Of a stretch of DNA of 64,000 bases, positions 2,061 to 49,025 are shown piece by piece. Each line of letters opens with the position of its first letter. Position 1 is the first letter of the stretch. The DNA lies in the IMG/VR virus record IMGVR_UViG_3300048930_000242, positions 1 to 64,000 of that record; one strand, written 5' to 3'. The notes under the pieces are model-generated. The model had not been told where the DNA came from. It did no database searches and worked only from the letters and a program-made list of their open reading frames with translations. The DNA comes from a virus. Made by a program: the position numbers and the translations under genes.

Positions 2061-2642
2061 TCAGTGGATTGTACCGCGGTGGATGCACTCTCCTTCGGCA
2101 AGATGATTGGCGAATTCAGCGCAGACCTGAGCGGCGAAGATAGGGATAGTCCATTCTATATCATCCAGGTCCGTTTGTACAGTAGTTCCTTCAGCCATCG
2201 GAATGCCCACAACGAAGAAGCCGATCAGGAGTTTCTTGTTGTCCCAGTCATAGACCTCTTGCTGGAGTAGACTACAGACCGACATGGTCTTCGCCACTCT
2301 GAAGGTTCGCCCATCTCGCTCGAAGTCAAAGATCCACATTGGCGCGGACTTCGAGTCGGCCAGTGGATTGATCTTCTTGGTCGGGCGGATGCCCATATAA
2401 TGCTTGCGTGTGAAGTCCGAGATCGTCTCGGAATGAGGGTCGATTTCCTTGACCGTGCTCTTGACATAGACTCCGGAGGTGGAGTGATTGATAAGATCCC
2501 ATTCCACCTCCTCTTCGGTCAAGGATTGAATTTCTTCAATCTTCAGGTCCAGATTCTTCCGTTCCAGGTTCCTCATTTTCGGAAGCGGAATCTTCGGAGA
2601 TTGCTCCACTGACATACTTGAACCGCTTTCCGCACCACTCAT
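2061..2642 (-). CDS. Hypothetical protein (true start probably nearer 2530)
   Basis: ORF fills the uvsX-gp41 gap; no recognisable motif. Confidence 0.55.
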   Translation of the reverse strand: MSGAESGSSMSVEQSPKIPLPKMRNLERKNLDLKIEEIQSLTEEEVEWDLINHSTSGVYVKSTVKEIDPHSETISDFTRKHYMGIRPTKKINPLADSKSAPMWIFDFERDGRTFRVAKTMSVCSLLQQEVYDWDNKKLLIGFFVVGIPMAEGTTVQTDLDDIEWTIPIFAAQVCAEFANHLAEGECIHRGTIH

Positions 2643-3642
2643 CGATTTTCTCCAGAACCGGTTGGGTGAAGAACTTCTCTGGATGTCTCAGAATAGCCTT
2701 TTCGAAAGCCTTTGAGCCATCTGGAAGCTCGTACTTATTGGCCACTTTCTTGAAGATTCCAGCGGCTTCAGCCATTGGCAAAAGACCCCAATATCGGTCA
2801 ATGCCTCCATCGTATCTAAGCAGAGATTCAACTCGCTGCTTTTCTCTGGTAAGACGAGACTTCTCGGTGACGAACTTGATTATCGAGCCGGTTGTGACCT
2901 TGTCGTCCTTGTCGTAGGACTTGGAGCAGAAGAGAAGGGTTGACGCGGCATACTGAGCACCAGTTCCGCCAGACATCGTGTTGGTCGGAATGTAGGCGCC
3001 GATCGCAGCGTAGACGTGACTGGTCAATAGCATCGGAACATTAAGGCGACCACATTCGATGGTCAGAACTCGGAAAGCTCCCTTCATCAACTGCTGCTTG
3101 GTCATGTCACGCTTATCCGATCCGGATGCGATGTCAGTGACTTCCTTCGTTGTGGAGAGGTTACCGATCGAGTCAAGGACGAGCATCAGCTTCGGAGGCG
3201 GCGCCTTGAACTTGTTCTTCTTAAGGTGCGGTCCGATCAGCTCATGGTACTTGTTCAGCACGTTCAGAGCCTTGGTCCTGAACTCCTCGACGGTCGCCAC
3301 TGGCTCAACGGCCACTCTCGAGACATCGATTCCTTGGGCTTCAAGTTGAGCTCTGGTGATTGCCGCCTCGGAGTCAAAAATGAGCACCTCATTCTCCGGG
3401 TCGATGTCCAAGAAACCCTTGATGCCACGGATGATGAAGAAGGTCTTGCCGGTCGACTTCTCACCCGCAAATCCAGTGATCTTGTTTGTAGGGAATCCAC
3501 CGAAAAGTGATCCTGAGATCAAGGCATTCAGTGAATAGCTTCCGGTGTCCATGAAGCCGGTAACGTCTCCATAGGCTCCTACATCGGCGACAGTTCCGAA
3601 TCCATCGGAAAGAGCGCTTGAAACTGCTTTCAATAACGACAT
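2536..3642 (-). CDS. uvsX: RecA-like recombinase
   Basis: DTGSYSLNALISG, Walker A GEKSTGKT, FDSE, VLDSIGNL, DMTK, MSGGTG. Confidence 0.95.
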   Translation of the reverse strand: MSLLKAVSSALSDGFGTVADVGAYGDVTGFMDTGSYSLNALISGSLFGGFPTNKITGFAGEKSTGKTFFIIRGIKGFLDIDPENEVLIFDSEAAITRAQLEAQGIDVSRVAVEPVATVEEFRTKALNVLNKYHELIGPHLKKNKFKAPPPKLMLVLDSIGNLSTTKEVTDIASGSDKRDMTKQQLMKGAFRVLTIECGRLNVPMLLTSHVYAAIGAYIPTNTMSGGTGAQYAASTLLFCSKSYDKDDKVTTGSIIKFVTEKSRLTREKQRVESLLRYDGGIDRYWGLLPMAEAAGIFKKVANKYELPDGSKAFEKAILRHPEKFFTQPVLEKIDEWCGKRFKYVSGAISEDSASENEEPGTEESGPED

Positions 3643-3651
3643 TATGACTCC

Positions 3652-4737
3652 TTAATCGAAGAATGAACTCAAATCATCACATGTTTCTGGAACCGTTGTA
3701 ACCGCTCTGGCCACCTGTCTCTTTGAGATCAAATGAGGATTATCTCGGAGCCTAAAATAGATGCCGCACTGGCATAATCCGACTTCGGTTCCGTAGGTCT
3801 TCAACTCATTTTGATCTTCGGCGAAAATCTTGATTCCATTGGAAACAACATTATAGGTGGCCGGGTGAAACTTGTCTCGGAGACCTGGGAATAGTTCGTC
3901 TTGATTCTCCCTGATCCAGATCACTCGCTCTCCCATTGGGAACTCTTTCTCGGAGACTCCAGGGAAGATTTTGCCGAGTGTAAACTTCGCTCCGGGTCCA
4001 GGGGAGCAGAACGCTTCATCATGATTGAAAGGAAGACCCGGATTTACCGAATTCGAGGTTGCGCAGTGATAGCCATAGTAAGGACCAATGCCTCGAATCG
4101 ACCGAAGGTTGTCATACATATCTTTCAGTGTCTTGGACTCAATCAAGCGGTCCATCATTCCATCGTTCTTCCATGAAGCGATCCATTCCGCTACGGCCAA
4201 TGAACCAGAGGCCTTGGCGTCCGCCTCTGAGTAGGTTCTCTTCACGAACTTGTTGCCGGCATCCATGATTGAGGTGTGGAGTTCGGTGGTTCCCCAGAAC
4301 GGGAGTCCTTTTGCCTTTGACTTCGCGGTCTCTCCACGAAGCCAGGCTGTGTACTCTCCGATCTTGCCAGTCTTGGCGTAATCGAGCTGCTCCTTGGCCA
4401 GTGAATCGAAGTCCACCAGAGCGGTGTCTGGATCTTGATAGCCAGTCAAGACCGAGTGAATGCCGCGAGCTCCGTAGAAGTGTGAGATGATCGTGTTGCC
4501 GAGCTTGTTTTCCATAGAGAGACCAGGAGCGGTCACAATATGGTTCATGATGTAGACCATTCGGTCGTCGAGAGTGATCTGAGACGAGAAGTACTCAACT
4601 CCCTCTCCGAGAGCAGGAGAAGGAGCCTCATAGGCCGGAATGATACCACGAATGAAAAGGTTCCGCTCGTTGATTTTCTCTAGGAAGAAATGGAAATCTT
4701 CCAGAGCGGCCTTATCTAGTTTGCTTCTTGGATTCAT
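3652..4737 (-). CDS. aGPT-PPlase1 / amino-acid:DNA-transferase-like helical (HhH glycosylase fold) DNA-modification protein
   Basis: N-terminal F..I.ER..DDR, HhH-like RGIGPYYGY, PGPGA, C-terminal EVGLCQ.GIY; context in a modification cluster. Confidence 0.65.
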   Translation of the reverse strand: MNPRSKLDKAALEDFHFFLEKINERNLFIRGIIPAYEAPSPALGEGVEYFSSQITLDDRMVYIMNHIVTAPGLSMENKLGNTIISHFYGARGIHSVLTGYQDPDTALVDFDSLAKEQLDYAKTGKIGEYTAWLRGETAKSKAKGLPFWGTTELHTSIMDAGNKFVKRTYSEADAKASGSLAVAEWIASWKNDGMMDRLIESKTLKDMYDNLRSIRGIGPYYGYHCATSNSVNPGLPFNHDEAFCSPGPGAKFTLGKIFPGVSEKEFPMGERVIWIRENQDELFPGLRDKFHPATYNVVSNGIKIFAEDQNELKTYGTEVGLCQCGIYFRLRDNPHLISKRQVARAVTTVPETCDDLSSFFD

Positions 4738-5660
4738 ACCTTCCTGCTCTTGATATAGCTCTCGAGATAATCGGCCGGTTCGCCTTTCAAGAAGTCGGTG
4801 GCCATTTTCAAGACCTCCGGTTCATTCAGGTCGAGAGACCCAAGTTTCTTCTGGAGCTGGCGATCGCATGAGCGGTGTCGATTGAACATGTCTCGCTCTC
4901 GCCAATCCCACGGACGGGAGAATCCCATCTGCATGATATTGAATCCATGGAAAGTGCAGAATCCATGGTGAGTCCATACCGGCTGGAGATTACAGACCCA
5001 CATGTCGCCGGCGAATGTCTTGCCGAAAATCGTGAACCAGAGATGATTCAATCGCTCCGGCTTATTGAAGACATGAATCTCCAGAACGACCTGGCAAACC
5101 GAGTCCGGTAGCTTACGGTCGATCAGCTCAAACTCGGCGCCTTCAACATCACATTTGAGAATCCCAGGTTTCTCTTCCTCGATCATTTTGTGGAAGTCGA
5201 TTGCTGGGACTCTCTTGACGATGCGACCCTTGGTGATCGACTCTGGACGCTTGATCTCTCCAGAGAGTTTGTCGCCGGACTCCAGAACCAGGAAGTCAAC
5301 GAATGGATCGGAGCCGCGAATGGCGGCCGCATTATGGAGCTGGTAGGAGCCTTCGGCGAACTTGTTATTCAGCTTCAAGCAATCGAAATTGTCCTCGTCC
5401 GGCTCGATTCCAATGTAGTAGGACGCTCCTTGTTCTGCGGCCAGTCGGTTGAACGAACCGGCGCATGCTCCAAGGTCCATGACCTTTCGGCCTTCGAAGT
5501 CGAGGTGAGTGTAGGACCCGAGCTCTTTCAAGCTCGGGTGAAGGGCCTTGAGCTGGTTCGAATCATTAAGATGAAAGAAACCAGATGGGTCGATCAAGAT
5601 CTCCTGGCCAGATCTTGTGAAATGGCCAGAAGACTTCGCCTTTGACGAATTATGCTTCAT
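4734..5660 (-). CDS. FkbM-family SAM-dependent methyltransferase
   Basis: VMDLGACAGSF, GIEPDEDNF, HNAA, LKCDVEGAEFE, VLEIH. Confidence 0.85.
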   Translation of the reverse strand: MKHNSSKAKSSGHFTRSGQEILIDPSGFFHLNDSNQLKALHPSLKELGSYTHLDFEGRKVMDLGACAGSFNRLAAEQGASYYIGIEPDEDNFDCLKLNNKFAEGSYQLHNAAAIRGSDPFVDFLVLESGDKLSGEIKRPESITKGRIVKRVPAIDFHKMIEEEKPGILKCDVEGAEFELIDRKLPDSVCQVVLEIHVFNKPERLNHLWFTIFGKTFAGDMWVCNLQPVWTHHGFCTFHGFNIMQMGFSRPWDWRERDMFNRHRSCDRQLQKKLGSLDLNEPEVLKMATDFLKGEPADYLESYIKSRKV

Positions 5661-5675
5661 TATGATGTTTGCCCC

Positions 5676-6923
5676 TCAGTCGTAGTTGCTGATGCCGCAA
5701 TCCTTCAGAGCATTCAGGTTGGCCGCTCGGTACTCGGTGCCTGGAATGTACTCGTAGAACTCCGGAGCGATTCGGCAAGAGAGCAGATCGCATTCCTCAC
5801 GAGCCATCTGAGTAGGAAGGTCGATCGGAGGAGTCTTCTGAGTCCATGCCGACGGACCGATCAGCGGTCCGACCAAGCCGATCTCTCGAGCGACTTGTAC
5901 CAGTCGGATTGCGTCGCAGACCACCGCGGCCGAGTTCGGCGAGTCCTCGACCGAAAGGTCGGCAGTGAACTCGATCGGAGCACCACCCCAAGAAGTCGCC
6001 TTGATCAGGAAGTGAGCACGCTTGTTGTCTTTCAGAGCGGTGAAGTAGGCGGCCGGGCCGGCCTTGATCGTATGAGGCTTCACCTCGGCATGAGCGATCT
6101 TCGACTGGTTGACGATCACGTTCTCTTTGGACTTCTTCTTGGACTTGAGGCGGCCCTGGTCCTGCATGTTCAAGAAGTCGGTGTTACCGCCAACATTGTC
6201 CTGGTAATGCATGGTGACGTCGGCTCCACGAGCGAGGAAAAGCTCCTGAAGGACGGCCGAGATGATGCTCGCTCCGACGCAAGACCGCATGTCGTCTCCG
6301 ATCATCGGGATCCGTGCGTCGATGAACTTCTGAGCCCACTCCTTGTTCGAGCCGATGAAGACCGGAATGCAGTTCACAAACGAGATGCCGGTCTCCAAGC
6401 AGATCTCGGCCCAGAACTCGGTGGCCTTCTGAGAGCCGACCGGAAGGTAGTTCACAACAGCCGTGACGCCAAGTTCAACGAGATGGGCCTTGATCCGCTC
6501 CTTGGAGATCTGCTCTTCAAAATTTCCAAGCTCGTCTTCGTTGATGAATCCCTCGTTATAGGCCCAACGGAAATCACGAAAGGAGTGATCGCAGTCATGG
6601 GCGTACATATGGTTCGAGACTCCATCCATGATCGGAGCCGGTCGGACAATCGGGTCATTGAAATCCTCCGAGAAATTCTTGTGGAACTCCAGAGTACAGT
6701 TCGGCTTCTTGAAGATGGCCCAGGTCAATGGCTGGCCGATCTTCCGGAAGTCGACGTCGAATGCGGCCGCGACCTGGATGTCACGGGTCTCATAGCCGCC
6801 GATGTCCTTATGGATCACGCCGCAAGCGTCCGGAGTGTCTCGGTAGAAGTCCAGGCCTTGGACAAGTGAACTGGCGCAGTTGCCAACGCCGACGATTGCG
6901 ATCTTGATCTTTTTCCTGCTCAT
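5676..6923 (-). CDS. ino1: myo-Inositol-1-phosphate synthase
   Basis: GVGNCASSLVQG Rossmann motif, NYLPVGS, FVNCIPVFI, GDD, GGNTDFLNM, SKK.SK, DNK, EDSPNSA. Confidence 0.95.
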   Translation of the reverse strand: MSRKKIKIAIVGVGNCASSLVQGLDFYRDTPDACGVIHKDIGGYETRDIQVAAAFDVDFRKIGQPLTWAIFKKPNCTLEFHKNFSEDFNDPIVRPAPIMDGVSNHMYAHDCDHSFRDFRWAYNEGFINEDELGNFEEQISKERIKAHLVELGVTAVVNYLPVGSQKATEFWAEICLETGISFVNCIPVFIGSNKEWAQKFIDARIPMIGDDMRSCVGASIISAVLQELFLARGADVTMHYQDNVGGNTDFLNMQDQGRLKSKKKSKENVIVNQSKIAHAEVKPHTIKAGPAAYFTALKDNKRAHFLIKATSWGGAPIEFTADLSVEDSPNSAAVVCDAIRLVQVAREIGLVGPLIGPSAWTQKTPPIDLPTQMAREECDLLSCRIAPEFYEYIPGTEYRAANLNALKDCGISNYD

Positions 6924-6999
6924 GCTCGTTTCTCCTATTTCAGTTTCAAGTCATTGGGCGGCGAGCTGGCCGCAGTAGGACTTTGAGGTTGTAGTGATC

Positions 7000-7028
7000 A
7001 TTATACCACACCAGGTAGCCTTTGTAAA
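7000..7028 (-). promoter_or_regulatory. sigma70-type promoter TTTACA-N17-TATAAT for the ino1 operon
   Basis: Exact 17-nt spacer; -35 sits in the loop of a 13-bp perfect inverted repeat (7008-7020/7030-7042). Confidence 0.8.
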
Positions 7029-7057
7029 CGGCTACCTGGTGTTCTATCTAGTGATTT

Positions 7058-8308
7058 TTATTGGAAATAGCTGCTCATAGAAGAGAACTCGCCGGTGCTC
7101 TTCGTGGATCGGATCAAGTCCTGATGGACGTAGTCCGCACCGGAAAGAGGGAGCTCTCCGTTGACGTACTTGACGGCTTGCCCGACGAAGTACTCTCCGG
7201 TTGTGACCGGAACCGACTGAGGGATGTGAGGAACCGACTTGCGACCTTCCAGAAGTTCGAGGTCGATCGGAAGCCTCATGATGCACATCATCTCACGGAC
7301 ATTCAAGTACCGATTCTCATACGGGTGGGCGATGTTGTCGACACACTTTCCGGCGAAGGTGTTGTGGCGACCATCTGGATTGATGATGTAAGAGCCAGCA
7401 TAGTAATAGCCCATGCCGCGCTTGGTCTTCTCCATTGCGAGATTGACCTTGTAGCTGAAGTTCTTGACGCCATTGAACGGACCATCGCCGGTCCTCTCGA
7501 TGTAGTCCATGCACTCCTGGAACTTTCCGTTCTCGATCACCCACTCGATGGTAGCGATATGTTGATCGACCGGCACTACCTCGGTAGTGAATCGCTGATG
7601 ATCCATTCCGTGAAGGTCCAGAATGAAGCGATAGGCCGGATCGTAATAGGTGATTTCACCATGACGAACCGCGTGCTCTCGATTGAAAGGAGACAGAAGA
7701 GCCTCGTCGATGATCTCTCGGTAGGTCTTCATTTTGACCTTCGGAGCCTGCTCGATGAATGGAGCCGACTTCGAGTCCCAGAAGAAATAGAACGAACGGA
7801 GTCGGTTCTGTGGGAGTCCGTGGACCATCGAGTTGGTCAGTGCGGTTGAGAACGAGTACCCGTGGTCCTTGGCGATCTGCTTCAGAACGTCCAGCGTTCC
7901 CTTTCCTCTTGGCTGGACCAACCCAGGAGCATTCTCTCCGAGCATGACCTTCGGTCGGATTTGCTCGAGGACCAAGTTGGCGCTCTTGTACATCCACTGA
8001 TTCTGCTGAGCGGTCGCGCCGGAGCTGAGTGGATTCCGAGATGTGTTCAGCCTGGAGAGGCCGGCGCACGGGCAAAGAGCGGTAACGATGTCGATGTCGC
8101 CGCCGGCCATTCTGGCCTTCAGATCGTCGGTGAAACCAGACTCGTCGACCAAGTACCGAGGAACTTCCGGTCCGAAATAGTTGGTCAGATGAGATTCATT
8201 GGCATTGAATGCATTCCAAGAGACCATGAAATCCGGCTTGGTTCCGATCACATTCCGGGCGGCGATCGCCATTCCGCCGATAAGAGGTACGATAGCTGCA
8301 TGCTTCAT
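7058..8308 (-). CDS. Divergent C5-cytosine DNA methyltransferase fold protein
   Basis: Motif IV PCAGLS, VI ENAP, VIII HGLPQNRLR, IX RYLNVRE, X PQSVP; motif I is atypical (IVPLIGG). Confidence 0.8.
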   Translation of the reverse strand: MKHAAIVPLIGGMAIAARNVIGTKPDFMVSWNAFNANESHLTNYFGPEVPRYLVDESGFTDDLKARMAGGDIDIVTALCPCAGLSRLNTSRNPLSSGATAQQNQWMYKSANLVLEQIRPKVMLGENAPGLVQPRGKGTLDVLKQIAKDHGYSFSTALTNSMVHGLPQNRLRSFYFFWDSKSAPFIEQAPKVKMKTYREIIDEALLSPFNREHAVRHGEITYYDPAYRFILDLHGMDHQRFTTEVVPVDQHIATIEWVIENGKFQECMDYIERTGDGPFNGVKNFSYKVNLAMEKTKRGMGYYYAGSYIINPDGRHNTFAGKCVDNIAHPYENRYLNVREMMCIMRLPIDLELLEGRKSVPHIPQSVPVTTGEYFVGQAVKYVNGELPLSGADYVHQDLIRSTKSTGEFSSMSSYFQ

Positions 8309-9531
8309 GAAAAGAAATTCTCCACATTATGAGAGGTGAGCGACGAGTAATCATTCTGTCGATTATTGCGGATGTCCCAGAAGTAGAACTCCGGAGAGAG
8401 GTGAATGCCTCGTCCTTTCGTTGCTCCAGGTCGACCGGACTCCATGACCTCTGGATTGAAGCATCCTTTATGGTCTGTAAATCCGTCTGGCCACTTCAGG
8501 TAGTTCCAGCCCCGGAGCCGGCAACGATCTTCTAGTTTGTCCGACATATATCTACGGGCATAATCTCGTTGCGCCCAAGTGCCAGAGAAAGGCTGTAGCG
8601 GCCCATTGACCTGCTTTCCTTTCGCATTGGTGATCTTTGGAGCGAACATCACGGACAGTGAAATCGTTCTCGAATCGTCATTGATCGGGAACGGCTGGGC
8701 AATTGTAACTTCGTTGAGTTCCATTCCGAGAATCTGAGCGATGTAGTTGTTCACCAGATCATCAATGGTCTTTTCGACATCTGGGAACCGGCAAATATGA
8801 TGCCGAAGGTCGATGTTGCCGTAGTTGAAAATGCCACGGTTGAATCTCTTGGCCGCGCCTTTGAATACCGACTCAACGATCGCTTTGAATCCTCGCTTGG
8901 TCGCTCCGTGGAGAGTTTCACCTTTGCGGTAGATCAAAGCATGCCCCGGCCGCCAGCAAGAAAGTCCGTGTGAGTCGCCTAATACGAACCCATCATACCC
9001 TCCTTTGACCACCGAGTCCACCCAGGGGTCATAGAACTCTCTGGCTGCGCTGTCAGCTTCCGAATAGATCGAGTGATCCTCAAGGCGCTTACAGGCCGCC
9101 TCAAACAGTTCCAGAGTCGGAGTACCCTGCCATTCCGGCTTGCGAAGAGTGGTGGATGCTCTGTTCTTGAACTTGTCCGGGAACGGAAACTCAAGAGCGG
9201 TCGGATTCTTGCATTTCGCAATGGATTCCCAGCACTGATTGACTCCGTGAAGCCACCATTTATAGGTCTCCGGATCTTCGGACGCTCGGCCATATTCGTT
9301 CCAGTTCCATCCGCCGATCTCTGGGCCGCCGTAGGAGTCACCAAGGTGAATCAGTGTCTGGTGAATGCTTTGGTCTTGCATCAAATCCCATTGGTTGGCT
9401 GATGTGGTAACTTCGACATCACCAAATCCAAAGTCTCTCATTGCGGCGGCCATAATCTCCATACGACCGCGGAAGTGAGAGTTCCACTTGTTGGCAATAG
9501 GATTCGGCACACAAACGATAATAGATTTCAT
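8305..9531 (-). CDS. SGNH/GDSL-like protein of unknown function in the modification cluster
   Basis: VLGDSH, YGNIDLRHH, late GIHLSP His; ATGA overlaps with gp43 and the MTase. Confidence 0.5.
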   Translation of the reverse strand: MKSIIVCVPNPIANKWNSHFRGRMEIMAAAMRDFGFGDVEVTTSANQWDLMQDQSIHQTLIHLGDSYGGPEIGGWNWNEYGRASEDPETYKWWLHGVNQCWESIAKCKNPTALEFPFPDKFKNRASTTLRKPEWQGTPTLELFEAACKRLEDHSIYSEADSAAREFYDPWVDSVVKGGYDGFVLGDSHGLSCWRPGHALIYRKGETLHGATKRGFKAIVESVFKGAAKRFNRGIFNYGNIDLRHHICRFPDVEKTIDDLVNNYIAQILGMELNEVTIAQPFPINDDSRTISLSVMFAPKITNAKGKQVNGPLQPFSGTWAQRDYARRYMSDKLEDRCRLRGWNYLKWPDGFTDHKGCFNPEVMESGRPGATKGRGIHLSPEFYFWDIRNNRQNDYSSLTSHNVENFFS

Positions 9532-12101
9532 CCGAAGAAATCCTCCAAGCTCCGGTCTGGTTCAGTGAGAAGTCCAACAGCGTCGGTGATTCCTTTCAGA
9601 GGAGTCAAGAACGAGAAGTCGTACATATGCTGCCGGTCGATGAACGGCTCGATATTGAATTCTGTTGGAAGGCGAGTGAAGAAGGCGATGGTGTCGGCCT
9701 TCAATGGGTTCGGCATGTTAAGGTGAAGGTAACGGATCTTGGAACCAGGTTTGATAATCTGGTACTTGTTGTCAAGCCCCATCTTTGTAAGCCAGTGGTT
9801 GTAATAGAGGACGCCACGAATCGGAGGCTGAGCTCCTTTGCCAGGGAGGCCGTCCAATCCTTTCCATTTATCTAGCTCGGAGACTCCGCGAGGGCAAGCG
9901 ATGTCGTAGACATTCAAAGTCTCGTATTCATCACGGATTCGCTTGATCAGTGGCACCAGGCGCTCTTTGTCGTTGATGTCGCCGGTCAAAATGATCTTGA
10001 CCGCTTCGGCCAAAGCGTCTCGGCAGAACTTCGGCGTGGACGTCTGGACAAGCTGAAGACCGACGGCCTTCTGTTCCGGCTCGGCGTAGCGGACGCCTTC
10101 ATTGTCGATCACGTTCAGAGCGTACTTCTTCTTGGCCGTCCAGAAGCCCTTGTCCGAAATGGCTTCTCGCTTCATGCTGATCAGAGTCTCGCGGCACCGC
10201 ATATACTTCGCGAGCTCCTCAATAGCCGGAATGATCGCCGACTCGGTGATTCGCTCCGAGACCTTGTCCAAGAAGTCAGTGATCTCGGTTGTGGTGGCGC
10301 CTGACTTGTTCCGGAAAGACATGTCGACCAAGTCACCGAGCTCAAAGTAGACCGAGTCGGTGTCGATCGCCAAGCACCGATCCTTCGGAGGGAGATGACT
10401 CAGCACTCGGTTAAGGAACTCGTTCACACGACGCTCGATGAACTGGATCACTACCTGAGACGTCAAGGTCACGCCTTCGGCCATTCGGATGTCGAAGAAC
10501 CTGAACCACTCGTTGGCCATCGCTCCGTAGAGAGAATTCAAGAGGACCTTGATCGCGCCTTCCTTGGTCTTGTAGCTCGAGGCTTCTTTCTTCAGAGCGG
10601 CCGCTTCGGAACCGGAGTGCTTCTCGGCATCCTTCAGAAGACTCAAAGCCTTGGACTTGGTCGTCTTTCGCTCATTGAAGAGTTCGGCAACGAGGCCAGG
10701 GATGGTCGAACTCTTCGAGTGACTGAAGAGTACGCCGTTCGCCGCGACCGAGAATCCTTCTGGGCATGCTTCCACTAGAGTATTCGCCGCAGAGGTCTGC
10801 TGAACCAAGTCATTCGAGTAGTCGCGGTGTTCGCAGATCGGATTGTTCGTGACCGTCGAGGCGCACATGTTCCACTGACGGATGATCGTCGGATGCATTG
10901 AGGCTACGTCGAAAGAGACGATCCAGCGGTACATCCCAGGGATGACTTGCTTCACGTAGGCGCCAATGTATGGCTGCTTAAGTGAATGAGTAGACAGTGG
11001 AGCGGCTCGGCCGGAATCAAGGAGCTTGTTACAAATGTAGGCATCCCAGACCTTGACCGGAGAATAGACATCTTCGAGATTCACCTTTGCCGTATAGGCG
11101 ATGAACATGGCGGTCTGAATCATCTGGCGTTTGGCGTTGATCAACCAAACCAACCAGGAGTCCAAGATGTTGTAATCATTAAACTTCTGAGGATTCACAT
11201 CGTACATGTTCTGGATGGTTTCTTCGTCGGTATAGTCGATCTTTGTCGTTCCGAGCTCGACCGTGGCGATTGTGGCCAGTCGGTAATTCTCTCGCGGCTT
11301 CACCTCGAACTTCTTGTAGAGGTCTTGAAGGTCAAGCTGGGCGATTCCGTAAAGATTGACCGTAACGGCGGCATTGCCATACGAGTCTTTATACTCACGC
11401 TTGGTGACCGCTCGGAACGGAGACAGCGTCTTGGCATGAGCTTCGCCAAGCACGAAGACGATCCGATTGTAGAGGTATGGAATGTCGAATCCGCCGGAGT
11501 TCCAACCGGACACGACCATAGGATAGTTGGTTGTCCAGAAGCTCAAGTACTGCCGGAGAAGTTCCTTTTCATCGCGGCAGTGCCGGAAGATGATCTTGCT
11601 CATGAGATCCGGGTAGATCTCATTGATGAACGACTCCTTGGCCGACCACGGTGCCAATGAGAAAAGGTAGAGCTTGTCGTCCAGTGAGTCGTAATGGGAG
11701 ATCGAGAGGATCTTCTTGGCCGCCATGATCGGAGATGGGAAGCCATCGTCGGACTCCACTTCCAGGTCGAACATCGAGACCCGAGTCTTCTCGAACTGTG
11801 GATGAAGCACTTGATTAGCATAGAGCGAAGAGATCGCGTTATGCGCCCACTGGTTCTGACCATAGACCGTGAATCCGCGCTCTTGGTTCTCGTCGATGAA
11901 GTCCTTGGCCGCATTGAAGTCATCCAGCTCGACCGCTCCTAGACGAATGTTCTCGTCGAGCATCGAGGTGAACTCGCCGTTTGGCGCTTCAATGTAAAGG
12001 GTCGGCCGAAAGTCCTTGACGTCTTCTTTGCAGTCGCGGCCATGTTCATCGATGTACCGATGAAGGACCGAGTTGCCCCACTTTTGAACTGAGATGTACA
12101 T
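9528..12101 (-). CDS. gp43: Family B DNA polymerase
   Basis: ExoI FDLE, GWNSGGFDIPY, YNILD; motif A DVASMHP, B KVLLNSLYG, C DTDS, KKKYA. Confidence 0.97.
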   Translation of the reverse strand: MYISVQKWGNSVLHRYIDEHGRDCKEDVKDFRPTLYIEAPNGEFTSMLDENIRLGAVELDDFNAAKDFIDENQERGFTVYGQNQWAHNAISSLYANQVLHPQFEKTRVSMFDLEVESDDGFPSPIMAAKKILSISHYDSLDDKLYLFSLAPWSAKESFINEIYPDLMSKIIFRHCRDEKELLRQYLSFWTTNYPMVVSGWNSGGFDIPYLYNRIVFVLGEAHAKTLSPFRAVTKREYKDSYGNAAVTVNLYGIAQLDLQDLYKKFEVKPRENYRLATIATVELGTTKIDYTDEETIQNMYDVNPQKFNDYNILDSWLVWLINAKRQMIQTAMFIAYTAKVNLEDVYSPVKVWDAYICNKLLDSGRAAPLSTHSLKQPYIGAYVKQVIPGMYRWIVSFDVASMHPTIIRQWNMCASTVTNNPICEHRDYSNDLVQQTSAANTLVEACPEGFSVAANGVLFSHSKSSTIPGLVAELFNERKTTKSKALSLLKDAEKHSGSEAAALKKEASSYKTKEGAIKVLLNSLYGAMANEWFRFFDIRMAEGVTLTSQVVIQFIERRVNEFLNRVLSHLPPKDRCLAIDTDSVYFELGDLVDMSFRNKSGATTTEITDFLDKVSERITESAIIPAIEELAKYMRCRETLISMKREAISDKGFWTAKKKYALNVIDNEGVRYAEPEQKAVGLQLVQTSTPKFCRDALAEAVKIILTGDINDKERLVPLIKRIRDEYETLNVYDIACPRGVSELDKWKGLDGLPGKGAQPPIRGVLYYNHWLTKMGLDNKYQIIKPGSKIRYLHLNMPNPLKADTIAFFTRLPTEFNIEPFIDRQHMYDFSFLTPLKGITDAVGLLTEPDRSLEDFFG

Positions 12102-42693: not shown

Positions 42694-43494
42694 TTATTCG
42701 CCAGTTGCTACAATTCTGCAGAACCTAAGGAAATCCTTATAGGCCTGCGAGTTAAGTGGGATTGACATTCCAACTCTTTCCTTGTTTCTTCCGACCATAT
42801 AGACGTCGATAGACTCAGGATAGTACTCAAGAGTCAAAGCTCCGCCATCGGCTTTCACTACAGCTCTGGCCTTCCCCTCAGTCTTCAGCTTCTTAGGACT
42901 TGGTGCTTTCATCAATTCTTCAACTAGGCTTTCCATTTTCGATTCTCCGATTTGAATTGGTGGTTCATAAGGTGCTTGAGTATCTCCATGTGTCAGCCAG
43001 TTTCGGAGACCCTTGATTGTGGTTTCGTCGATGGTTCCAAGTCCTTTCCATCCAGGAGTGAAGTTGATCAGATAGCCGGCTCTGGCCGAGTTGAGATCAC
43101 AATAGCCGATCATGACCTTATGCTCATCGAACTCGCCGAATCGCTCACCATCGACTCTGATCTGATTCACAATGAAGACAGGGCATTTTGGATTCTCGCA
43201 GTCTGGACCAAGGAAGCAATCGACATGACCGCCGTCGGCACCGACTGTGCCTTTGAAGTAACCATAATGAGCGGACATTGTGACAGCCCAACTCTTTCCG
43301 GTTGGATCTACTCCACGACGAACTGAGCCAAGCGGATTCTCAATTGAGATCGACATTCCATGAAGGCGGATAGAACCCTTCTTGTAGTTGCCGGCTCTCT
43401 TCTGAGCGGCCGTCGGTTGTGGAGTGTCATTCAGCGGAGAAGTGGCCGCCGAATGCGCCAGATCTCGAAGACACATTTCTTGGAAAAGTTTCAC
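42694..43494 (-). CDS. InPase (inorganic pyrophosphatase-like) domain protein
   Basis: PT.AQK.AGNYKKG, ISIENP.GS.R.G.D..GK.W, HYGY..GT.GADG.HVD, FDEHKVM.G. Confidence 0.85.
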   Translation of the reverse strand: MKLFQEMCLRDLAHSAATSPLNDTPQPTAAQKRAGNYKKGSIRLHGMSISIENPLGSVRRGVDPTGKSWAVTMSAHYGYFKGTVGADGGHVDCFLGPDCENPKCPVFIVNQIRVDGERFGEFDEHKVMIGYCDLNSARAGYLINFTPGWKGLGTIDETTIKGLRNWLTHGDTQAPYEPPIQIGESKMESLVEELMKAPSPKKLKTEGKARAVVKADGGALTLEYYPESIDVYMVGRNKERVGMSIPLNSQAYKDFLRFCRIVATGE

Positions 43495-47490: not shown

Positions 47491-48063
47491 CTAAGACCAG
47501 ACTGCCTCTTTGAAGATTTCAAGAGGATCACGGAAGCTGCCATTGGCGTCTTGAGTGTAAACCATGGCCTTGTTCTTGATAATGCTTCGATTGAAGCCAT
47601 CGATGAACATCGCTTGCTCATTGTTGGCCTTCGAGACGTCAAATGACTTGCCGTCGTCTGGCAGCTTTCCTGGATTCGATGCGACCAGAAGAACCAGACG
47701 GATCTTGGTCTGGTTAAGAACACCGATTCCGCGGAAGAAAAGTTTCTCCATTTCGAAGACGTAGTCCCCGGAATAGCCACGGTAAAGCGGAGAGTAGACG
47801 AGTTCACCGAGATGGAATCTGTCAAAGATCAGCTTCGGGGTCTTGCTTTGCGGTAGCAGAACATTCTGAATCAGGCCAAAAGAGTTCTTGAACGACTCTC
47901 GCTGGTAGGTCTGAAGGTTTCCATTATAGCACTGGAGTCGCTTCGGTTTGTCGAATTTGATGGTCTGGTGGAAGCCGAGGCGGTCATTGATCGTCTCAAT
48001 GAGAGTGCCCTTTCCGACATTGTCGATGCCTTCGATAATGAAAATAGACGGTTCGCCGTTCAT
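47491..48063 (-). CDS. Thymidylate-kinase-like NMP kinase (candidate modified-dCMP kinase)
   Basis: IIEGIDNVGKGT, IFDRFHLGELVYSPLYRGY. Confidence 0.85.
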   Translation of the reverse strand: MNGEPSIFIIEGIDNVGKGTLIETINDRLGFHQTIKFDKPKRLQCYNGNLQTYQRESFKNSFGLIQNVLLPQSKTPKLIFDRFHLGELVYSPLYRGYSGDYVFEMEKLFFRGIGVLNQTKIRLVLLVASNPGKLPDDGKSFDVSKANNEQAMFIDGFNRSIIKNKAMVYTQDANGSFRDPLEIFKEAVWS

Positions 48064-48065
48064 GA

Positions 48066-49025
48066 TCAGAAGCCCTCATCAAGCGGGATTTGGAGTAGAT
48101 TCTCGTCCTTTTCTTCGGCCGCTTCGGATGCCTTGTACCACTGGCCGATGCTAGGCGCGAAGAATCTGACAAGCCATTCATAGTTGGTCAATTCGGTGGC
48201 ACGACTTGGTGGCACTATGTTATACCTAGTGAGACCGGAAACGAACACGAACAAGTGATTCTTGAACGAAAAAGCATCTCGACTCTCTTCTTGGAAAACA
48301 GAATTAGCGTGCGGATTGAACTCGTCTTTGTTCCAATGCTTTTCGTAGATGTGAAGAGAGCCGGCATTGTGGTAGTAATCGCCTAGCTTCAGATTGTTCA
48401 TTCCGCGGCGGAACTTCAAGACTGCGTACATCATCCAGGCGATGAACTGGAACTGAAGGATGTCATTGCACCAGCCGACCACCAAATCGTTTGACCGCAT
48501 GTTCACGATCATATGGAGTTCATCGTTGCGGATCAAGAACTGGAGAGAAAGCGTACATGGGGTGTCTTTTGGATTGAGACCGGAATTGTCGACTCCGTGG
48601 ATGTTGATGATCGCCTTTCTGGACTGAGGATCGGCAGCCAGAAGGTTCACGCAGTTGTCGAAGCGAGAGATCAATTCGGAGCTTGAACCGTTAGAGAGCC
48701 CTTCATGCTCAGCGAAAATCCAGTACCCGTAATTCGAGATCACATTTCCGCTGCCATCCTTAAGCGTATCCCAGAAAGGAGCGGACTTGGAGATTCCGGC
48801 CGCTTTCAAGCTCTTCGACATGTACCAATTGAACTCGTCGATAACATACGACGGCTTCAGTTTCCTGGAGCCAAGAGTGACCACCAATGGATCGTTGAGA
48901 TCGAAAAACATTCGTGAGGCGATCACTTCTTTCGATCTGGTGCCGCGAGTCTCAACCAGAAAGCCGTCTTCCAAGATATTTTGGCCGGCTTTCTGGTACA
49001 TTTCGTTCACAATACTCATACTCAC
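48066..49025 (-). CDS. gp42: dCMP hydroxymethylase-like (TS fold, dCMP-specific)
   Basis: EFNWY, SNYG, PCT catalytic Cys, MRSNDLVVGWCND (Asp at the TS Asn177 position, as in T4 gp42), SLHIYEKH. Confidence 0.8.
   Translation of the reverse strand: MSMSIVNEMYQKAGQNILEDGFLVETRGTRSKEVIASRMFFDLNDPLVVTLGSRKLKPSYVIDEFNWYMSKSLKAAGISKSAPFWDTLKDGSGNVISNYGYWIFAEHEGLSNGSSSELISRFDNCVNLLAADPQSRKAIINIHGVDNSGLNPKDTPCTLSLQFLIRNDELHMIVNMRSNDLVVGWCNDILQFQFIAWMMYAVLKFRRGMNNLKLGDYYHNAGSLHIYEKHWNKDEFNPHANSVFQEESRDAFSFKNHLFVFVSGLTRYNIVPPSRATELTNYEWLVRFFAPSIGQWYKASEAAEEKDENLLQIPLDEGF

Follow-up and report, generated by a model that had tools for sequence, protein, structure and literature searches.

What five genes placed between those encoding the DNA polymerase gp43 and the recombinase UvsX do for a T4-like virus is the question raised by the stretch of DNA considered here, namely positions 1 to 64,000 of IMG/VR virus record IMGVR_UViG_3300048930_000242 (hereafter, the window), which open a complete genome of 153,340 bp that carries direct terminal repeats. 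A preliminary description based on the sequence of the window had proposed that these genes may serve to attach inositol or inositol-phosphate to 5-hydroxymethylcytosine (hmC). The analysis presented below points to a cyclitol, possibly O-methylated, being attached to hmC after replication, an assignment that we regard as evenly poised between right and wrong. This is the best reading given the linkage of the inositol-phosphate synthase gene (ino1) to a transferase-like gene across genomes, the presence of a cytosine-specific thymidylate synthase (TS) homolog and the lack of recognizable glycosyltransferases. The earlier proposal was thus upheld as concerns linkage, cytosine specificity and the absence of glycosyltransferase families, yet had to be amended in that the C5-methyltransferase is not a core component, a HAD phosphatase encoded outside the window is one, and no kinase accompanies the transferase-like protein. 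All five minus-strand genes noted earlier between gp43 and UvsX were recovered as open reading frames (ORFs), at the following positions, together with three further components of the proposed pathway.

8305-9531, minus strand: g1, a two-domain protein of 408 residues with no Pfam match and an SGNH fold in its predicted structure.
7058-8308, minus strand: g2, a C5-cytosine DNA methyltransferase of 416 residues (PF00145 DNA_methylase, 2.7e-17, 63.6 bits).
5676-6923, minus strand: g3, an Ino1/MIPS-family NAD-dependent inositol-phosphate (cyclitol-phosphate) synthase of 415 residues (PF01658 Inos-1-P_synth, 1.1e-22, 80.6 bits).
4734-5660, minus strand: g4, an FkbM-family S-adenosylmethionine (SAM)-dependent methyltransferase of 308 residues (PF05050 Methyltransf_21/FkbM, 2e-9, 38.2 bits).
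3652-4737, minus strand: g5, a kinase-less protein of the aGPT-Pplase/amino-acid:DNA transferase (AADT) superfamily, 361 residues (PF18723 HMUDK_hel, 3.3e-13, 50.1 bits).
48066-49025, minus strand: TS homolog of the T4 gp42 type, a predicted dCMP hydroxymethylase (1b5e, 4.8e-22).
47491-48063, minus strand: Tmk-like P-loop kinase adjoining the TS homolog (phrog_761, 1.7e-11).
Genome positions 111964-112386, outside the window: small capless HAD phosphatase, homologous to the HAD protein of the module found in other genomes.

The distribution of these genes was considered in the best 80 of 280 IMG/VR loci that contain a g5-like gene. Scans of IMG/VR with single proteins returned no locus for g5 and two for Ino1, and the counts given here come from an alignment-based scan. 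The preliminary description had looked to cross-genome linkage of ino1 and the transferase for a decision, and such linkage is what was found, with Ino1 being encoded in 77 of the 80 g5 loci and the other three being cut off upstream. A small HAD phosphatase was present in 76 loci and g1 in 73. Every locus lacking Ino1 or g1 is truncated just upstream, while HAD went undetected in a single uncut locus (L037). The genes lie on one strand in the order g1-Ino1-HAD-(FkbM)-g5, with FkbM, when there, being found between HAD and g5, and both order and strand are maintained across protein identities of 42-52%; the same arrangement is seen in loci L007-L010. The proteins g1, Ino1 and HAD, together with g5, constitute a conserved core. 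FkbM (39 of the 80 loci) and a C5-methyltransferase (4 loci) are accessory, and 23 loci have a TS homolog at a distance of no more than 8 kb. The count of 4 removes the C5-methyltransferase from the core cassette in which it had earlier been included and marks it as a gene that joins the module now and then from a sizeable phage clade of its own. Each of the 23 TS homologs so linked bears the signature of T4 gp42. Closer to the virus considered here, a relative of 87% identity (L006) contains the same five genes, while one of 64% identity (L007) lacks the C5-methyltransferase and carries the HAD gene within the cassette.

The association between g1, g5 and FkbM is also seen in the form of fused proteins. 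In P0138, a metagenomic protein of 981 residues, FkbM, g5-like and SGNH domains are joined, and the contig encoding it reads Ino1-HAD-fusion-kinase-TS, with the kinase-TS pair (L094) being homologous to that of the virus addressed here. In phages of the Aeromonas 44RR2.8t/31 group, in turn, an SGNH-like and a g5-like part are fused in a single protein of 795 residues (ORF233c in 44RR2.8t). Directly upstream of this fusion gene lies ORF234c, encoding a sodium:solute symporter annotated as belonging to the SGLT/SMIT family (the two genes together at L092:3091-7071), and no Ino1 was found in phages of this group. The presence of a symporter beside the fusion, combined with the lack of Ino1, suggests that in these phages, substrate import replaces synthesis.

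The TS homolog, which the preliminary description had deemed dCMP-specific, indeed proved to be closest to T4 dCMP hydroxymethylase and to contain Asp at the position that determines specificity. When aligned with the T4 enzyme (1b5e), the catalytic Cys (in PCT) and the motifs MRSND and GWCND are all retained. Within MRSND, the Asp corresponding to Asp169 is kept where 5-hydroxycytosine (5hoC) synthases contain Asn, while in GWCND, Asp occupies the position of Escherichia coli N177, the residue that sets dUMP/dCMP specificity. Criteria for distinguishing the types of TS homolog have been reported, with all of the 5hoC synthases tested containing Asn at the Asp169 position (PMC13326640). A reading in which 5hoC is produced was rejected, as the TS homolog keeps the Asp169 equivalent rather than Asn. 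On the basis of these residues, the TS homolog is predicted to supply hmC. The adjoining Tmk-like protein is probably a modified-dCMP kinase; it was not assigned as a DNA kinase, as it is unrelated to the 5-hydroxymethyldeoxyuridine (5-hmdU) DNA kinase of phage PaMx11 beyond the P-loop.

The statement made earlier that no glycosyltransferase is encoded in the window holds for five families, now searched across the complete 153-kb genome. No match was obtained to PF09198, PF11440, PF00534, PF00535 or PF20691, covering alpha-/beta-glucosyltransferase, GT1, GT2 and TAGT, with the blanks returned by the two T4-specific models being weak, given that these models were also blank in control genomes.

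The protein most directly connected to DNA modification is g5. Its predicted structure (mean pLDDT confidence 92) was compared to 48,161 chains, with the best match being PaMx11 gp46, a 5-PmdU glycinyltransferase (8z2m_A; Z 9.7, a moderate value for a helical protein; root-mean-square deviation 4.2, 225 residues aligned), followed by DUF2419 and helix-hairpin-helix (HhH) DNA glycosylases (Z 7-8). All 361 residues of g5 align to gp46-like helices. Neither Glu318 nor Cys322 varies among 43 relatives, and the E-x-x-x-C spacing so formed is that of EVETILC in gp46, with the two Cys residues being matched by sequence spacing and not by superposition. A conserved Cys and a neighboring Glu are essential in M6 gp51 and ViI gp247 (PMC8989533). 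Other comparisons were blank: the sequence of g5 matched no solved structure, Foldseek returned no significant match for the model (gp46 was at rank 44), and alignment of the g5 profile to gp46 by hhalign was not significant. In terms of family, the match of g5 is to PF18723, which represents the helical part of 5-hmdU DNA kinases, and not to PF18724, the Pfam family of AADTs, such that the aGPT-PPlase/AADT-like label assigned earlier is sound for the superfamily fold and the Glu/Cys pair but not for the AADT family itself. A search of the whole genome for PF18724 gave no match, a weak blank since control genomes gave none either. Assignment of g5 as a 5-hmdU DNA kinase was ruled out, as the N-terminal P-loop kinase domain is absent and g5 consists of the helical domain alone. 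Nor did family searches of the cassette proteins reveal a kinase. Relatives of g5 number 375 in a large protein collection.

In known AADTs, a thiol adduct is formed at C6, giving rise to an exocyclic methylene (PMC8989533, PMC11472151). Amino acids or putrescine serve as nucleophiles and, in the case of ViI gp247, it is the hydroxyl of serine that attacks, yielding an ether (PMC8989533). The chemistry proposed below for g5 would follow this precedent, although it would have to depart from the known AADT route, in which the substrate is 5-phosphomethyl-dU produced by a 5-hmdU DNA kinase: g5 has neither a P-loop nor a kinase beside it, and the TS homolog is of the cytosine-specific type.

As no DNA kinase is present, g1, the obligate SGNH partner of g5, is the natural candidate for activation of the hydroxyl group. 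In an AlphaFold model of g1 (pLDDT 91), residues 178-394 adopt the SGNH/GDSL fold of esterases and acyltransferases, with all of the top 50 structural matches being SGNH enzymes (Z 9.3-13.1). Invariant across 47 relatives are G185-D-S-H188, G238-N-I-D241, R243, H245, E364 and H377, such that the block I Ser (GDS), block III Asn (GxND) and block V His are each kept. The block V Asp (DxxH) is not, with RGIH being found instead; the invariant E364 might stand in for this residue. The C-terminal domain is accordingly of the SGNH type and not the nucleotide-sugar-binding domain of GT-B enzymes. The N-terminal alpha/beta domain aligned start-to-start with residues 1-97 of T4 beta-glucosyltransferase, a weak similarity (hhalign E 3.3e-4, probability 38%), and PF09198 (T4-Gluco-transf) was matched by 2 of the 47 g1 relatives, at 0.02. 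A feature search of the ESM Atlas with the N-terminal domain offered no usable match, nor did the g1 sequence match any solved structure. Relatives of g1 number 250 among the cluster representatives of the protein collection, and in the ESM Atlas, the two-domain fold is common to virus-only clusters alone. Prediction of a g1+g5 complex returned a score of 0.00, which carries no weight either way.

A further feature may tie g1 and g5 to replication. In T4-type phages, the C-terminal tail of the polymerase makes contact with the sliding clamp. Here, gp43 ends in SLEDFFG, g1 in NVENFFS, g5 in DLSSFFD and g2 in MSSYFQ. Among the 326 ORFs of at least 80 residues in the genome, these are the only four with [LVIM]xx[FY]F plus one residue at the C-terminus; the sole near miss is a baseplate hub protein (genome positions 77305-78045, plus strand) ending in GLTNFF. 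On the strength of these termini, g1 and g5 probably ride the sliding clamp. No gp43-like tail is found in Ino1 or FkbM, in line with the two acting on a small molecule. That three enzymes end in polymerase-like tails suggests a coupling of modification to the replication fork.

That small molecule would be produced by g3. The PF01658 score of this protein (80.6 bits) lies far above the cut-off of 27, it matches phrog_33138 at 9.5e-147, and its closest solved relative is Mycobacterium tuberculosis Ino1 (1gr0, 1.5e-76). The two proteins align co-linearly, with g3 keeping GVGNCASS, which includes the NAD-binding GxGxxA, as well as SKKxSK and DSPNSA. The phage proteins differ from the bacterial enzyme in that most contain Arg in place of the Lys of GDDIKS, as is the case in g3 and in at least 70 of 85 phage homologs. 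The Lys of GDD-x-K-S has a catalytic role in the yeast and archaeal enzymes. At this position, Lys is found in 1gr0 and in the inositol-3-phosphate synthase 7nwr, while Ala is found in the five-membered cyclitol synthase 6k96. Homologs in L008 and L003 were part of this comparison. One subgroup of phage Ino1 proteins also differs from 1gr0 in that 15 additional residues (AAGTTQGQE..RTGRTA) precede the NTDFLN motif.

The HAD homolog of the virus is intact, with DxDG, TGR, K and EDD motifs, and is encoded between the genes for topoisomerase II subunits. The idea that the HAD protein missing from the cassette is hidden within the 308-residue FkbM ORF was rejected. For g4, the FkbM assignment rests on a score of 38.2 bits as compared to a cut-off of 22.7, and SAM motif I reads MDLGACAGSF. 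The Ino1-HAD pair is likewise encoded by cultured phages, namely Caulobacter phage Cr30, Stenotrophomonas phage Moby and its relatives, and Ralstonia phage RP13 (L001:4729-9254, L002:6213-11627 and L003:6995-8971). In Cr30, the pair adjoins a PF18724 amino-acid:DNA transferase (1.3e-52) and a weakly TAGT-like protein, while in Moby and its relatives, the pair lies inside a FolE-QueC-DpdA-QueE 7-deazaguanine cluster. Two Cr30 genes upstream of Ino1 were considered as g1 and g4 homologs and rejected, as they are not homologous despite being of equal length.

The pathway that we infer, in each of its chemical steps and in the identity of the adduct, from the observed gene identities, folds, conserved catalytic residues, synteny, fusions and tails would run as follows. 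The TS homolog and the adjacent kinase would supply hmdCTP, which gp43 would incorporate into DNA. Ino1 would convert a hexose phosphate into a cyclitol phosphate, from which HAD would free the cyclitol, most likely myo-inositol, with FkbM, encoded by about half of the phages including the present one, probably O-methylating this product. Probably riding the clamp via their polymerase-type tails, g1 and g5 would then act on hmC in newly made DNA, with the N-terminal domain of g1 possibly gripping hmC in the manner of beta-glucosyltransferase. In place of activation by a kinase, g1 would most likely esterify the hmC hydroxyl, the weakest step of the pathway, for which direct dehydration by covalent catalysis would be an alternative. 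As in the amino-acid:DNA transferases, Cys322 and Glu318 of g5 would support thiol attack at C6 and loss of the 5-substituent, and the exocyclic methylene so generated would capture a hydroxyl nucleophile to yield an ether-linked cyclitol-methylcytosine. The C5-methyltransferase g2 would be an add-on, probably methylating those cytosines that escaped replacement.

Put in its most specific form, the proposal is that in hundreds of uncultured aquatic T4-like phages, a cyclitol, either myo-inositol or the O-methyl ether thereof, is joined to hmC through an ether bond and is installed without a nucleotide-activated donor or a DNA kinase, with a clamp-riding, esterase-fold enzyme acylating hmC and a Cys-dependent, glycosylase-fold transferase swapping the ester for the cyclitol. 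This version is offered tentatively, as we consider it somewhat likelier to need revision than to stand in full. Several considerations weigh against attachment of a cyclitol to hmC. The cyclitol-hmC product is predicted from genes and not from the chemistry of virion DNA, and no module-bearing phage was found in the phage isolate collection searched. Synteny speaks for a shared pathway and is not proof that the cyclitol ends up on DNA. Because most phage Ino1 homologs contain Arg in place of the catalytic Lys, their product may differ from myo-inositol phosphate. The appearance of the Ino1-HAD pair in other contexts, such as the 7-deazaguanine cluster and next to the Cr30 AADT, could reflect a more general purpose. 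Finally, with neither an activating kinase nor an acyl donor having been identified, the role assigned to g1 is a guess.

The alternative that survives best is one in which g1 and g5 do hypermodify hmC, yet the attached group is not a cyclitol but, for example, an amino acid, a polyamine or the outcome of water-derived chemistry, with Ino1 and HAD providing a cofactor, a carrier, a transient leaving group (such as an inositol ester or phosphate donor) or an indirectly needed metabolite. Such a scenario, unlikely but deserving of consideration, would account for the g1+g5 pair of the Aeromonas phages that lack Ino1, for the portability of the Ino1-HAD pair, seen beside unrelated modification systems, and for the ester intermediate, derived from an unassigned donor, that an SGNH fold implies; it would also agree with the amino acids or putrescine taken by known AADTs. 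Less easily explained are the placing of Ino1 and HAD, which g1 and g5 flank in virtually all loci that can be evaluated, and the fact that the cassette contains no amino-acid-tailoring enzyme (pyridoxal phosphate-dependent, radical SAM or flavin adenine dinucleotide-dependent). The importer of the sugar/inositol family adjoining the Aeromonas fusion is in keeping with a need for substrate, and ViI gp247 offers an earlier example of a hydroxyl acting as nucleophile.

A second alternative, already disfavored and considered improbable, treats the five as independent auxiliary genes gathered in a plastic portion of the T4-like replication region, with Ino1 and HAD serving host metabolism (as osmolyte or cell-envelope inositol), the methyltransferases countering restriction, g5 being a repair glycosylase and g1 an esterase. 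While T4-like phages differ in what lies between gp43 and uvsX, g5 does resemble HhH DNA glycosylases and the C5-methyltransferase is separable, independence is difficult to reconcile with order and strand being conserved in 73-77 of the 80 loci, with two independent domain fusions, with clamp-type tails common to three proteins or with linkage of the module to gp42-type TS genes. The last alternative, that the decorated base is 5hoC, as in RB69 and DLP3, or a thymine derivative, as in ViI and M6, draws on TS homologs of T4-like phages that can be 5hodCMP synthases (PMC13326640) and on PF18723 being named for a 5-hmdU kinase domain, and is the least probable of all, given that the virus's own TS homolog and all 23 linked ones contain Asp, not Asn, at both the 5hoC and the dUMP/dCMP positions.

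The favored proposal, namely attachment of a cyclitol to hmC, leaves g2 in a secondary position. As a C5-cytosine methyltransferase, g2 contains motifs IV (PC), VI (ENx), VIII (QxRxR; PQNRLR), IX and X and the Gly-rich motif I, the last without its usual Phe, and CPCAGLS, GENAPG, PQNRLR, RYLNVRE, PQSVP and PLIGG are kept throughout its clade. IPLIGG, CPCAGLS, GENAPG, PQxRxRxFYFFW, RYLNVRE and QNVP are invariant in 26 relatives, and the clade comprises 1706. A search for a MazG-type dCTPase (PF03819) found none, and with no dCTPase having been detected, residual cytosine is a plausible target of g2. The clade seems to be tied to cytosine-hypermodifying phages in general. Relatives of g2 sharing 35-39% identity (L098:790-7224 and L100:1-7251) likewise have their start coupled to the gene before them, in other clusters of the T4-like type beside the DNA polymerase gene; those clusters contain gp42-type TS, dUTPase/DCD, small HAD and sugar nucleotidyltransferase genes, or aminosugar genes and a GT2.

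The setting of the cassette is defined by the following features.

9528-12101, minus strand: gp43 DNA polymerase, the upstream border (PF00136/PF03104; phrog_262, 1e-242).
7000-7042, minus strand: promoter-like hairpin in the gap before Ino1 (11 of 12 matches to the sigma70 consensus, plus a TG extension).
2536-3642, minus strand: UvsX recombinase, the downstream border (phrog_97, 2.6e-69).

The genes follow the order of the T4 replication module, namely gp44, gp62, RegA, an RNaseH-like protein, gp43, the five genes, UvsX and a gp41-type helicase. In T4, the equivalent interval reads 43-imm-42-b-gt-segA-uvsX, such that gene 42 and b-gt do occupy the slot to which the cassette had earlier been likened. 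The nearest polymerases from isolates, all of them from cyanophage, are just 37% identical to gp43 of this virus. ATGA coupling, also noted earlier, is found at the gp43/g1, g1/g2 (where the g2 start meets the g1 stop) and g4/g5 junctions, although a 134-nt gap before Ino1 speaks against a single operon. As this gap contains a strong match to a sigma70-like promoter, the cassette would comprise two transcription units rather than one. The promoter-like element coincides with a perfect 13-bp hairpin (7042-7008), with TTTACA (-35) in the loop and TG-n-TATAAT after it, 60 nt ahead of the Ino1 start. Standing where the two halves of the cassette meet, this element may serve as a promoter under regulation or as a site of RNA processing. 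A nucleotide search with the 5.9-kb region found no match in 50,697 phage records, while a search of sequencing runs listed one DNA run (0.06 share of words) and no RNA run. In L006, g5 is followed by a NUMOD3-type homing endonuclease gene and then, where the window has uvsX, by a 494-residue gene with an intein-splicing match (L006:11116-13301); the uvsX gene of the window, unlike that region, has neither a homing endonuclease neighbor nor an intein match. Elsewhere in the window, 42694-43494 (minus strand) encodes a stand-alone protein of 266 residues with a PF18823 'InPase' domain (1.7e-48), a domain that in PHROGs is found within giant virion, DarB-like anti-restriction and endolysin-annotated polyproteins.

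Three known systems invite comparison. Thymidine hypermodification by 5-HMUDK together with aGPT-Pplase2/AADT occurs in phages ViI, M6, PaMx11 and PhiW-14 (PMC8989533, PMC11472151). As proposed here, a TS-family enzyme makes a 5-hydroxymethylpyrimidine nucleotide that is incorporated and then modified on the polymer, and the AADTs share with g5 the helical, glycosylase-like fold and the conserved Glu and Cys. The present system is set apart by the use of cytosine, by the lack of a P-loop DNA kinase, by PF18723 in place of PF18724, by an obligate SGNH-fold partner, by genes supplying a cyclitol instead of an amino acid and by polymerase-like tails. With glucosylation of hmC in T4, the cassette has in common the 43-uvsX slot, gp42-type synthesis of hmC, the same target hydroxyl and the weak resemblance of the g1 N-terminal domain to beta-glucosyltransferase. 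It differs from T4 in that the genome lacks a UDP-sugar-dependent transferase domain among the five glycosyltransferase families searched, and in that the linked small molecule is a non-activated cyclitol, suited to substitution chemistry and not to glycosyl transfer. In RB69 and DLP3, arabinosyl-5-hydroxycytosine is generated by a D169N 5hoC synthase, NDP-arabinose and GT-B glycosyltransferases (PMC13326640). These, too, are T4-like phages in which a TS homolog goes together with a Tmk-like kinase and a small HAD phosphatase and in which the phage's own gene cluster makes the precursor of the decoration, yet here, Asp169 is kept and no GT-B-type transferase was found among the families searched.

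In the known hypermodifications of phage pyrimidines, hmC and 5hoC are decorated with sugars, and 5-hydroxymethyluracil receives amino acids or polyamines. A full-text search of the literature found no paper in which modification of cytosine is connected with inositol synthesis, with SGNH proteins or with proteins that match PF18723 alone, and the two mentions of 'inositol' that were found in the phage hypermodification literature concern structural neighbors of glycosyltransferases. If true, a polyol placed on hmC by substitution chemistry would be a new DNA base. The mechanism of the AADT type would be extended from thymine to cytosine, and a nucleobase hydroxyl would be activated without a kinase. 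As the module is common, being found in 280 IMG/VR contigs, such a modification would affect restriction, CRISPR targeting, sequencing and metagenomic library preparation of the DNA of the phages that carry it.

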